Shown: positions 4,919-26,643, counted from the first letter of the stretch. The stretch: DNA of 32,562 nt from an uncultured Clostridia bacterium (GCA_944385325.1 CALWWT010000199.1:1-32562), one strand, 5' to 3'. Numbers and translations are program-made. Notes: a model not told the origin generated them from the sequence alone.

Positions 4919-6445
4919 TTACAATTCAATAATCGCATCATCGTCAAACGCCGCAAGTGCACCGGCAGGTGCAGAAACCGCTGTCCTGCTCTTTTTCAGC
5001 TGGGAAACCAGTCCCATCACCTGCACCGTAATCAACGGCGTCATGGCTACCATCGCAACCACGCCAAAAGCATCCGTTACCAGATTCCCGCCGACCGCAA
5101 TGCAGGCGCCCTGTGCCAGCGGCAATAAAAATGCAGCCGTCATCGGACCGGAAGCGACACCGCCCGAGTCAAAGGCGATGGCGGTATAGATCTTCGGGAC
5201 AAAAAAGGAAATCCCGATTGCGATCGCGTATCCCGGAATCAAAAACCACATGATCGAAATCCCGGTCAGCACCCGTACCATTGCAAGCCCAAGCGATACC
5301 GCAACGCCAATCGACAGCGCTGTTCCCATTGCACCGGCAGAGATCGCACCGTCCGTCATTTCCTCAACCTGATGGTTCAGGACATAAACTGCCGGCTCGG
5401 CTTTTACAATAAAGTAGCCCATCACCATTGCGACCGGAATCAGCAGCCAGCCGGTTGTGCCGGTTGCCAGTTCCTGTCCGAGAAAGTTGCCGGCAGGCAT
5501 AAAACCAACGTTCACGCCGGTCAGAAACAGTACAAGCCCGATATATGTATATCCCAAGCCGATCAGGATTTTCACAAGATTGCGTCCCGACAGTCTCAGC
5601 GACACAACCTGAAACACCGCAAAAAATAAAATAATCGGCAGCAGCGAAACGGCAATTTCCCGAATATAATCCGGGAAACCATCTGCAAACAGACCCCACA
5701 ATTCTTTTGAATCAGCAATTTCCGGCACTGCCGTTATCTGATATTCACTTTCTGTCGGACGGTAGATCATCCCCAGCAGCATGACCGCCAGAATCGGTCC
5801 GACCGAACAGAGCGCAACCAGGCCAAACGAGTCATCCGCGGCATGACGGTCACTTCGGATTGCCGAGATACCGACGCCCAGCGCCATGATAAACGGTACC
5901 GTCATCGGTCCGGTCGTAACACCGCCAGAATCAAACGCGACGCTCAAAAAACTCTCCGGAACAAAAATGGACAAAAGAAATACAATTGCGTAAAATACAA
6001 CCAACATTCGCGGCAGCGTAATACTGAACAGCATTCTCAGCAGCGCCATGACCAAAAACAGCCCGACCCCGCCTGCAACCGCCAAAATCAAGACCATATT
6101 CGGCACGGACGGCACCTGCGTAGCCAGTACCTGCAAATCTGGTTCAGATATCGTGATAATAAAACCCAGTAAAAAAGATATCAATATAACCAGCCACAGT
6201 TTTCTGCTTCGGGTCATACTTGTGCCGATTCGTTCTCCCATCGGCGTCATTGCCATCTCAGCGCCCAGGGTGAAAAACATCATCCCGACAATAATCAGCA
6301 CTGCTCCCATTAAAAAGCACAACAGGATGCTCGGTGAAATAGGCGCGACGGAAAAACACAGCAGCAATACAATGCCGATAATCGGCAATACAGCCTGTAA
6401 GGATTCCTGTAATTTTTCCTGTAGTCTTTTGGTACTTGCGATCAA
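4919..6445 (-). CDS. fused double DUF1538 integral membrane protein
   Basis: 508 aa, TTG start with AAGGAGAGGAG upstream. An internal repeat is obvious: AFDSGGVTTGPMTVPF in half 1 and AFDSGGVASGPMTAAF in half 2. It is strongly hydrophobic throughout. Confidence 0.7.
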   Translation of the reverse strand: MIASTKRLQEKLQESLQAVLPIIGIVLLLCFSVAPISPSILLCFLMGAVLIIVGMMFFTLGAEMAMTPMGERIGTSMTRSRKLWLVILISFLLGFIITISEPDLQVLATQVPSVPNMVLILAVAGGVGLFLVMALLRMLFSITLPRMLVVFYAIVFLLSIFVPESFLSVAFDSGGVTTGPMTVPFIMALGVGISAIRSDRHAADDSFGLVALCSVGPILAVMLLGMIYRPTESEYQITAVPEIADSKELWGLFADGFPDYIREIAVSLLPIILFFAVFQVVSLRLSGRNLVKILIGLGYTYIGLVLFLTGVNVGFMPAGNFLGQELATGTTGWLLIPVAMVMGYFIVKAEPAVYVLNHQVEEMTDGAISAGAMGTALSIGVAVSLGLAMVRVLTGISIMWFLIPGYAIAIGISFFVPKIYTAIAFDSGGVASGPMTAAFLLPLAQGACIAVGGNLVTDAFGVVAMVAMTPLITVQVMGLVSQLKKSRTAVSAPAGALAAFDDDAIIEL

Positions 6446-15185: not shown

Positions 15186-15526
15186 AAGCAGGCAGCCCGG
15201 GCAAAAATGCCGGACTGTCCGCCCGAGCTTGTCGAAAAAGTATTTTGGAGAATTTTTAAAATCGCCAAAATTCAACTAAAGTTTACCATAAGGCGGAAAG
15301 CAGGTCCAGGGGCGGACGGTTCGCGTTGCGAACCAGACAGTTTGCCAGCAAACTGTACGGCTTTCTAGGAAAGCCTTCCCTGGGCGCGCGTAAGCGCGCA
15401 ACCCCCCTAAAAAACGCCGCCATTGCCCATGCGAAGCATGGCAATGGCGGAAAAAGAGAACGAGCGATTGATTTTATCGACAGTCTGAAGCGGGCAGCCC
15501 GGGCAAAAATGCCGGACTGTCCGCCC
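15186..15526 (+). repeat. copy A of the hairpin-rich intergenic element (core 15225..15487) with its 39-nt flanking direct duplication
   Basis: Direct repeats are 15186..15224 and 15488..15526 (38/39 identical). The core shares modules with 23315..23535 (inverted) and 17788..17894. Hairpins lie at 15318..15334, 15338..15355, 15359..15375, 15384..15399 and 15417..15450, with a closing stem 15305..15311 paired to 15378..15384. Confidence 0.8.
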
Positions 15527-24744: not shown

Positions 24745-26643
24745 TCATTGCTGACTACCCGTGTCAGCTTTTTGGTGCGTCTCCAGTTCCCGCTGAAAAC
24801 GCTGATAGCACTCGATGTACAGTTCAATTCGCCCGCTGTCCAGTATCTTCCGAAGCTGCTCTGTCAGAACCGGGTCATCCAACAGGTCAACTACATACCC
24901 CGCATAACGGGTGTCATACCCATCCTGATACTCTTCTACCAGTTTTTCAAACGAAATACCGTCCGAATAACTGCGCCCGATATAATCGGTAGCCGCGTCC
25001 ATCGAATCCGCCACGGTGATCAAATCAGTGAGGACATCCAGCTTCGGATCCCGTACAAAATCCTCCGGCAGATCTGGATAACCTTTGGAGCCATCATAAA
25101 ACCTATGATGCATCAGTGCCGACTGGGCATACATCTCGGTCGCAGGGTCCCCTGAAAGCATCTGATAACCTCCAAGCGGATGGTTGCGGATAATTTCAAA
25201 CTCAGCATCAAACAAACGGCGGTTATAGACTGTTACCGTTTCCAGACACATCAGCTTGCCAATATCATGAAACAAGCCCGCATTCCGGACAGTCCTGCAA
25301 ATTTCTCCGGTACGGCTCAGGATTTCTTTCCGGTCACTGACTCCAACTATCCCTGCAAATCGTTCCGGCTGCCGTCTGACAAGTGCTTCCGCAAAAGCCG
25401 CGGCGATCTGCGCGACCATCTGGGAGTGGATATAAGTCGGTGCATGGCGCTGCATAACCAGACGGAGCGCAAGGTCTTTAAACGTCACATTGTCCAGATT
25501 GCTCAGACTGATCAGCACATCACAGATCGACCGTATCAGCGCCGGTTCACACCCGGCATTGGAAAACGCACGGGTATATTCAAGCAGCGAATTTACCAGC
25601 TCAGGTTCTGCCTGACGTCTGCTTTGCTGCAAGGACAGCGCAGTCTCCGGGTTGGCGCGGCGGGTCGCAAGCCAATAGTATTCGAGAATAATTGCCGGAA
25701 GAATCACATTTTCCCAAATTCCATTATCACTGTAATCGGTGACGCTCCGTCGGCTATACAGTTCCTGAAACCGGTCAAGCAGCTGATGAATGGTGATATC
25801 CCCTCTGTGATAATAACTGGTATACAGAGTATACACCCATCGAGGACTAACGAATCCGCCTTGTTTTTGCACATTGTACACATATTCCGAAGACGTTACA
25901 ATCCTGTCGATCAGCTGCTGATTTTCAACGCCTTCCCGAACAAATCCCAGTCCGGTGGTTCGGTTCTGGTGAAGTATCAGCAGATACTGCTCCCAGGGAA
26001 GTGTTGGAAAGCACTGCCGCAGCTCGGGATCGGAAATGTTTTCAATAATCTCCGTCAATATATCAGAATGCTTATTGGCAAGCGAAAGATGCTGAGAAAC
26101 ATTAAAATCAGCTGCACGGTTGGCGCAGCAGCGGATGATAAAATCCATCGTTTCCGGACGGCTGATCTCACGCCATCTTGGGAACCATTCGGCTCCTTCC
26201 CTGAAGTATTCATTTTCACTGTAAATGGTAAACTGACCCTCAATCACCGAGCTTTTCCGGTCGCGCATGTAATAATAATACCCGACACCGCAATAATACA
26301 GCTGCTGAATCAGCAGGTCAAGATCTCCCAGCCTGCGCGCATACTGCAGCAGAGCCAGATGCGTGCGGTAATTAACTTCACGGTCAAAGCTCTGGCTGGA
26401 GCTGAGCAGTGACTGGGCAAATGAGACAAACTCCGGAATATTTTCAGCCGGCTGCTGCTCGATTTTTTCCAGCGTTGGCAGAATTTCCTCCGAAAGAATC
26501 CGGATGTTTTCCCGGCAAAGCTTGTGAATCTGCTGCGTATTGGTGTGTAAAAAATCAACATACTGTTTTTTTGTCATCTGTCGGGACGGAAAAAAACTGA
26601 GTTTTTCAATCTGTTCAGTATTGTGTACATACGCTTCAAACAT
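24745..26643 (-). CDS. HD-GYP domain protein with a large uncharacterised helical N-terminal region
   Basis: 632 aa. The C-terminal region carries GLFHDIGK and ALMHHRFYDGSKGYPDLP, the HD and HHxxxDGxGYP motifs. Roughly 400 aa at the N-terminus have no motif I recognise. It ends 13 nt before the NYN-like gene. Confidence 0.75.
   Translation of the reverse strand: MFEAYVHNTEQIEKLSFFPSRQMTKKQYVDFLHTNTQQIHKLCRENIRILSEEILPTLEKIEQQPAENIPEFVSFAQSLLSSSQSFDREVNYRTHLALLQYARRLGDLDLLIQQLYYCGVGYYYYMRDRKSSVIEGQFTIYSENEYFREGAEWFPRWREISRPETMDFIIRCCANRAADFNVSQHLSLANKHSDILTEIIENISDPELRQCFPTLPWEQYLLILHQNRTTGLGFVREGVENQQLIDRIVTSSEYVYNVQKQGGFVSPRWVYTLYTSYYHRGDITIHQLLDRFQELYSRRSVTDYSDNGIWENVILPAIILEYYWLATRRANPETALSLQQSRRQAEPELVNSLLEYTRAFSNAGCEPALIRSICDVLISLSNLDNVTFKDLALRLVMQRHAPTYIHSQMVAQIAAAFAEALVRRQPERFAGIVGVSDRKEILSRTGEICRTVRNAGLFHDIGKLMCLETVTVYNRRLFDAEFEIIRNHPLGGYQMLSGDPATEMYAQSALMHHRFYDGSKGYPDLPEDFVRDPKLDVLTDLITVADSMDAATDYIGRSYSDGISFEKLVEEYQDGYDTRYAGYVVDLLDDPVLTEQLRKILDSGRIELYIECYQRFQRELETHQKADTGSQQ

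Follow-up and report, generated by a model that had tools for sequence, protein, structure and literature searches.

A mobile MITE family of gut Oscillospirales that inserts at Rho-independent terminators and usually duplicates the entire terminator hairpin

Class C (IIC) bacterial group II introns insert directly after the stem-loops of intrinsic terminators, a safe site, and are ribozyme retroelements of at least 700 nt with neither inverted ends nor target duplication. Insertion sequences that target REP/BIME or other palindromes (IS1397/ISKpn1, IS110/IS1111) likewise use structured extragenic palindromes, relying on specific repeat families or guide RNAs and leaving the palindrome unduplicated. 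Previous work on the IS1182 family established that IS1272 and TnSha1 choose inverted repeats and terminator hairpins as their targets irrespective of sequence, and that the stem-loop is deleted in the process (PMC4923244; PMC5678879). In the cruciform model proposed for IS1272, attack at the 3' feet deletes the stem-loops, whereas attack at the 5' feet leaves the entire stem-loop duplicated (PMC5678879). Finally, the bacterial MITEs, among them Correia/CREE, RUP, BOX, Chunjie, Nezha and QMITE, are small, non-coding, multi-copy and intergenic, with inverted ends, target duplications and stable predicted hairpins; their duplications are short and of fixed length, and no MITE that duplicates an entire terminator is described in the review of the group (PMC10969869). 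The element examined here shares each of the former features with these MITEs but differs in the nature of its duplications and in having an interior that is better conserved than its ends.

The window, i.e. the whole stretch of DNA that was analysed, comprises 32,562 nt from an uncultured Clostridia bacterium (GCA_944385325.1, CALWWT010000199.1:1-32562), in which a hairpin-rich element had originally been predicted to occur as three copies (A, B and C) of either a structured RNA or a MITE family. An nhmmer profile of the family located exactly three places in the window, at 15226-15487 (+), 23317-23535 (-) and 17726-17922 (+); all three copies are thus real and lie where they had been predicted, although the boundaries of copy B required correction. 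Copy A (263 nt, 15225..15487) is on the plus strand in the orientation of the original prediction, the insertion sequence orientation proposed below being the minus strand, and lies between convergent genes encoding a GGDEF/HD response regulator and an HSP20 protein. Its 5' inverted end (15225-15239) is followed by an AT-rich variable segment (about 15240-15298), a closing stem, P1 (15305-15311 with 15378-15384, enclosing hairpins at 15318-15334, 15337-15356 and 15359-15375), two further hairpins, P2 (15384-15399) and P3 (15419-15448), and a 3' inverted end (15473-15487). Copy B (221 nt, 23316..23536, minus strand) also lies between convergent genes, encoding an ABC ATPase and a PIN-domain protein, with P3 at 23355-23384, P2 at 23404-23419 and P1 plus its inner hairpin at 23420-23456. 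Copy C had been described as a short copy, but is a full element of 206 nt (17721..17926, plus strand) from a divergent subfamily, with an inverted repeat of about 22 nt at its ends (17721-17745 and 17902-17926, which have the core TTGGGGTAA in common), the 5' arm of P1 at 17793-17800, an inner hairpin at 17805-17821, P2 with a 3-nt loop at 17831-17845 and P3 at 17866-17894. A tRNA-Ala(GGC) gene (18008-18083, minus strand), with its own terminator-like hairpin at about 17976-18005, is located approximately 80 nt downstream of copy C.

Each of the three copies is flanked by a direct repeat, given here without strand. Those around copies A and B, of 39 and 38 nt, were missed in the original prediction, which listed no flanking duplications; they are host intrinsic-terminator hairpins, and those of the A locus differ from those of the B locus. 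At copy A, the left (15186..15224) and right (15488..15526) repeats are 97% identical, the right one being followed by the original T-run. At copy B, the repeat adjoining the 3' end in the predicted orientation (23278..23315), beyond which the T-run follows on the minus strand, is 95% identical to the second (23537..23574). Copy C is bordered instead by exact 8-bp duplications, TATTTATC, at 17713..17720 and 17927..17934, the left one sitting directly past the T-run of an upstream terminator (approximately 17658-17712).

The A site was then compared with that in five contigs from other samples, retrieved via the HSP20 protein. In four contigs of the same species (L016-L019) the flanks are 100% identical to the window, and exactly 302 nt are absent, which corresponds to the 263-nt element plus one 39-nt copy of the hairpin. 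These empty sites retain a single hairpin, identical to the right copy, and then the T-run. Indeed, neither the right hairpin copy nor the roughly 190 nt of flank that were compared differs from the empty site, while the left hairpin copy carries one G-to-A change that places an A.C mismatch in the stem. The fifth contig (L020) ends inside element A, and its site is therefore occupied. The first 25 nt of copy C are also found in one of the contigs with an empty A site (L017). Copy B is present in contigs L021 and L022 and absent from L057, L058 and L106; in the last of these, from a close relative (99% identity in D-Ala-D-Ala ligase, Ddl), the orthologous spacer contains one homologous hairpin and no element, and the B site is also empty in a lineage at 95% Ddl identity. 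A gene for a 632-aa HD-domain protein (window 24745-26643), located between the RmuC and PIN-domain genes, is missing from L106 as well, and constitutes a gene-content polymorphism next to the B site.

A pattern scan of representative genomes revealed six further full or near-full copies, spread over three other genomes of the Oscillospirales. Two are in Candidatus Faecivivens stercorigallinarum, while three belong to Ruminococcaceae bacterium UBA1448 and one to an uncultured Clostridia MAG. One decayed fragment, in the UBA1448 genome (L011, 372-477), lies directly past a stop codon and keeps only P1 and P2. The organism from which the window derives is itself a relative of Ca. Faecivivens, its Ddl being 87% identical to that of a Ca. 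Faecivivens sp., in whose syntenic loci (about 230 kb, much of it redundant) no copies were found. BLASTN of copy A against plasmids and phages gave no match, BLAST with the 40-nt ends gave only noise, and two pattern scans of IMG/VR returned only chance matches in high-GC DNA. A single JGI metagenome scan gave 26 matches, all of them by chance, the family being absent there or the pattern too strict. A pattern match in Ca. Agathobaculum pullistercoris (L005, approximately 5487-5890) is no family member according to nhmmer; the region is full of other G+C-rich hairpins and may hold a different repeat element. Taken together, the inverted ends, the target duplications, presence and absence among contigs of the same species and copies at unrelated sites elsewhere strongly support the MITE alternative of the original prediction, and the element is almost certainly mobile and non-autonomous. 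It is a new MITE family of a known kind, and what is unusual is the duplication of an entire terminator, which the empty sites bear out.

With regard to target choice, all seven insertions with readable flanks lie on a terminator or within about 10 nt of one. Entire terminator hairpins are duplicated not only around copies A and B, but also around three copies in other genomes, where the repeats measure 24 nt (L004), 21 nt (L010) and about 28 nt (L015). An exact 8-bp duplication is seen at copy C and at one further copy (L006, ACTTTTTG), in the latter case inside the T-run of a terminator; of the remaining two loci, one has a truncated end (L011) and the other starts at the contig edge (L014). 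Duplication length accordingly ranges from 8 to 39 nt, the hairpin cases spanning 21-39, and in these the duplication equals the full palindrome to within 0-4 nt when A/T pairs from the A- and T-tracts are counted. The element thus inserts at Rho-independent terminators. Where plain DNA beside the terminator is the target an 8-bp duplication results, and where the hairpin is the target the joins fall at both feet of the palindrome, such that the entire hairpin is left on both sides of the element. The duplicates of a hairpin pair all differ from each other, at one to five positions, which in copy B, L004, L010 and L015 are mostly in the loop or the 5' arm. These mismatches may reflect error-prone repair synthesis through the hairpin.

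The order of modules in the element proved to be as predicted, with P1, enclosing GGTTCGCG..GCGAACC, followed by P2 and then by the P3 hairpin; the tail common to copies A and B and the two extra hairpins inside P1 of copy A (those at 15337-15356 and 15359-15375) were similarly confirmed. The P1 closing stem reads CCAGG(G/A)C/G(C/T)CCTGG and in the window copies encloses GGTT(C/T)GCG..GCGAACC. Copies outside the window are without the GGTTCGCG module, so that P1 in them is simply a hairpin whose loop reads GG(T/C)A. P2 is GCGCGC-GTAA-GCGCGC and P3 is GCCATTGCC...GGCAATGGC. The terminal inverted repeats are imperfect, (G/C)AG(N)CTGTCGA.AAA, with 11 of 15 positions pairing in copy A; together they make up helix 1 of the consensus fold, which is 85% paired, the ends of L010 being degenerate. 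Individual copies measure 159-263 nt, giving a family size of about 160-265 bp. Open reading frames across the copies are short and keep no conserved frame, as had been foreseen, and the peptide from a spurious ORF gave no matches in a protein collection. Mean pairwise identity is 0.90 for P1 plus P2 and 0.86 for P3, against 0.72 for the 3' inverted end, 0.56 for the 5' inverted end and 0.42 for the AT-rich segment, in which A, B, C, L014 and the L004 group essentially cannot be aligned with one another. Whether copies are compared inside a single genome or between species, the values range over 82-90% for the core hairpins, 56-72% for the inverted ends and 33-42% for the AT-rich segment, most of which is missing from L015. 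A core better conserved than the ends is unusual, since an ordinary MITE conserves its ends. The pattern fits with a conserved parent from which different internal deletions have repeatedly produced subfamilies, the leader hairpins keeping the conservation of the parent. It also fits with the hairpins themselves being needed, either for transposition or as RNA.

The identity of the mobilising enzyme was approached by comparing the MITE with full-length IS1182-family elements at 37 loci (four from plasmids and 33 from IMG/VR), together with ten further places, representing eight distinct insertion sites, of one Lachnospiraceae IS1182-family element. The full-length ends start G(A/G)GGCTG(T/G), at the left end of more than 20 of the fetched loci and as matched end pairs in 23; examples are GGGGCTGTCGCACTAAG, GGGGCTGTCGGGAAATAG and GAGGCTGTGACATAAGTC. 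The MITE ends, CAGGCTGTCGAGAAAGTC and GAGCTTGTCGAAAAAGT, begin (C/G)AG.CTGT by comparison with G(A/G)G.CTG(T/G), and share 9-12 of 18 positions with the left ends of the IS1182 family. The mean of 9.4, compared with 4.7 +/- 1.4 for column permutations, was reached in 5 of 5000 permutations (p about 0.001), but the end of IS903, of the sister family IS5, matches equally well: of 18 positions in the IS903B end GGCTTTGTTGAATAAATC, 10-11 agree with the MITE end GAGCTTGTCGAAAAAGT when counted by hand. On end sequence, then, the element would be placed only in the IS5/IS1182 group and in no single family. The layout of the elements provides a second point of comparison. In IS1182-family members one or two terminator-like hairpins come after the left end, and then a -10 box near the transposase ATG. 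Read on the strand opposite to the predicted sense, the MITE presents an end, about 18 nt, P3 with ..GTTTT(TT), P2, P1, the AT-rich stretch and a short right end, which by analogy suggests that this is the forward direction of the element. L004-type copies also carry a mini-ORF, MNDYQ(T/I)QK, in the AT-rich stretch; this is reminiscent of the N-terminal (K/N/Q)(D/N)Y motif of IS1182-family transposases and may be regarded as suggestive only.

The MITE differs from the full-length elements in having no gene for the DDE transposase of the family (PF05598, PF01609, PF13751), and in duplicating a hairpin or 8 bp, the opposite of what is seen in IS1272 and the full-length members, in which the hairpin is deleted or split. 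ISfinder reportedly gives direct repeats of 0-60 bp for the IS1182 family. Among full-length copies with both flanks available (about 20 loci plus the eight sites of the Lachnospiraceae element), duplication was seen in none, and the flanks resemble either the two halves of a palindrome or an A-run directly joined to a T-run, suggestive of a hairpin that has been lost. Nor was the MITE core found by nhmmer in the 37 fetched loci, and an inverted-end regular expression identified no autonomous partner with MITE ends in the window or in 8-kb genome loci. A protein search with the IS1182 transposase whose element has the most similar ends returned only Lachnospiraceae relatives, at identities of at least 83%.

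Some features of the full-length elements were recorded in passing. At several of the eight distinct sites of the 2074-bp Lachnospiraceae element (L109-L118), an A-run in the left flank meets a T-run in the right flank with no intervening hairpin, an arrangement that would fit removal of a terminator stem-loop as in IS1272. In one subgroup from IMG/VR (L074-L082, L089, L094 and L101), the transposase start codon lies 6-8 nt past a strong and often extended -10 box, suggesting that the transposase mRNAs may be leaderless, and the inverted end forms one arm of a terminal hairpin. The right end of ISClbu1 on a Clostridium butyricum plasmid (L070, 2340-2425) contains the terminal repeat a second time, in inverted orientation, which creates a palindrome of approximately 40 nt, and this insertion sequence sits centred in a perfect 14-bp AT palindrome (AAAATAA to one side, TTATTTT to the other).

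Given these data, the MITE might instead be moved by a transposase from outside the IS1182 family, of IS5/IS903-like or some other 8-bp-duplicating DDE type, with the terminator preference having evolved independently. The IS903 end matches as well as do those of IS1182, many DDE families duplicate 8 bp as the MITE does at plain sites, and duplications were never seen in the full-length IS1182 copies examined. IS903 itself generates 9-bp duplications and is not known to prefer terminators, as compared with the 8-bp or hairpin duplications of the MITE at terminators. Element layout argues against this alternative, since the end followed by terminator-like hairpins matches the IS1182 left end. 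Targeting of hairpins and terminators, with no regard to primary sequence, is documented for IS1182 members (PMC4923244; PMC5678879) and is what the MITE displays. A mobiliser from outside the family is considered unlikely, if still worth bearing in mind.

Next to be considered is whether the three-hairpin core is a functional structured RNA riding on the element, such as an sRNA, a cis-acting 3'-UTR module or a portable terminator, and is the part on which selection acts. The original prediction went further, proposing a strand-specific RNA with sense A+, C+ and B-. The conservation of the core relative to ends and AT-rich segment would suit such an RNA, as would the GNRA-type GTAA loop of P2, the insertion of complete hairpins in the loop of P1 with P1 undisturbed, and the folding of copy A, which is far more stable than that of shuffled sequence (z = -5.9). 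The two strands of copy A fold equally well, though, at -100.3 and -100.1 kcal/mol. Similarly, Rfam searches at gathering and at permissive thresholds (E up to 10) revealed only a tRNA in the window and left the element unmatched. The claim that differences between copies preserve pairing held in part: a G-C pair of P1 in copy A is A-T in copy B (alignment columns 95/161), and pair 10 of P3, C-G in the consensus, is G-C in copy C. These few compensated pairs are single events, however, and copy C has an A.C mismatch in P1. Across nine copies, 19 of 32 consensus pairs are invariant and two show double-sided change; shuffled alignments equalled the double-sided count in 215 of 500 cases and the covariation score in 287 of 500, and no covariation measure was higher than in shuffled or slid controls, nine copies affording low power. 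The covariation that had been anticipated is thus not significant in this set. Nor does the argument from strand-specific G-U pairs carry the proposed sense, being based on two C-to-T changes, against which a C.A mismatch in P3 of L015 (U.G on the other strand) favours the opposite strand, a tally of two to one. No consensus promoter was found inside the copies, and conservation of the core can come from a parent insertion sequence whose subfamilies were formed by different internal deletions. The hairpins are real palindromes, the arguments for a structured RNA and for its strand are unsupported, and a functional RNA core appears improbable.

A variable duplication length, from 8 to 39 nt, might also bring to mind a SINE-like RNA that is retrotransposed, being copied by a reverse transcriptase at nicked hairpins. 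The truncated copy L011 and the short L015 would accord with such a process, as would the recent insertion of copy A, in which one mismatch is found in one hairpin copy and none in about 190 nt of flank. Conversely, the element has terminal inverted repeats and no A-tail, the duplications at two insertions are exact and 8 bp long, and the window genes that were scanned with Pfam include no reverse transcriptase, such that retrotransposition is very improbable. As regards the group II introns discussed above, the Rfam searches, which would include their families, left the element unmatched. Least credible of all is a guide-RNA remnant of an IS200/IS605 (TnpB omega RNA) or IS110/IS1111 (bridge/seek RNA) element, which the hairpin-rich structure, the variable segment beside a conserved scaffold and the structured DNA target might recall, but against which stand the target duplications (neither group makes any), the differing flank ends with no conserved target tetranucleotide by the ends, and the lack of a match to any family in Rfam, which includes the HEARO family. 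A guide role was separately rejected, the complementarity between guide and target that would parallel IS110/IS1111 not being found; the longest stretches that an element matches in its own target do not exceed those it matches in the targets of other copies.

The explanation that best accommodates the data as a whole, and that is probably correct, is that of a non-autonomous, terminator-targeting MITE of gut Oscillospirales that is moved in trans. DDE transposases are a common class of cut-and-paste enzymes, and mobilisation would be by one of the IS1182/IS5 type. More specifically, movement by an IS1182-type transposase via attack at the 5' feet of a cruciform is favoured by a modest margin over its negation, the published cruciform model including a branch by which the stem-loop is duplicated. 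In this scheme the attack would proceed as in 'pathway b' of the IS1272 model, and repair synthesis would then yield the two copies of the hairpin; attack on a cruciform is, at this point, part of the model. The MITE may have originated from an insertion sequence whose left end and leader, comprising the end, a terminator hairpin, further hairpins and a promoter region, became joined to a short right end. Following insertion each neighbouring gene would retain a hairpin. Transcripts arriving from the left, in the sense of the insertion sequence, would meet P3 and its T-run, P3 of copy A having a 13-bp stem followed by CG and six T, and transcripts from the other side would stop at the duplicated host hairpin with its original T-run. 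Since a hairpin is kept on both sides, insertions should be nearly neutral and could accumulate between convergent genes, and the presence of three copies in 32 kb of ordinary chromosome can be understood if terminator insertions between convergent genes cost little. A bolder and rather doubtful proposal is that the core is the functional heart of a structure-guided transposition, in which the transposase reads the hairpins of the element and the target cruciform, joins the 5' feet and duplicates the terminator, or else is a mobile RNA module, i.e. a portable terminator or sRNA, that is spread by the element. If true, termination would continue to work to either side of the insertion, and the family would supply a case from nature of the 'stem-loop duplicating' branch of IS1182-type transposition, so far hypothetical.

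By using the hairpins at gene ends as landing pads that are copied in full, the element would allow both neighbouring genes to keep a stop signal, which represents a simple route to a near-harmless insertion. The existence of empty and filled sites within the same species makes the family a clean natural case for the action of a DDE transposase on cruciform or hairpin DNA. It would also extend the hairpin-targeted process proposed for IS1272, which had previously been seen only in its hairpin-deleting form. In terms of genome annotation, duplicated terminators around a hairpin-rich insert in gut Clostridia should be read as mobile DNA, as opposed to RNA genes or CRISPR-like repeats, and the polymorphic insertions could serve as strain markers in metagenomes.
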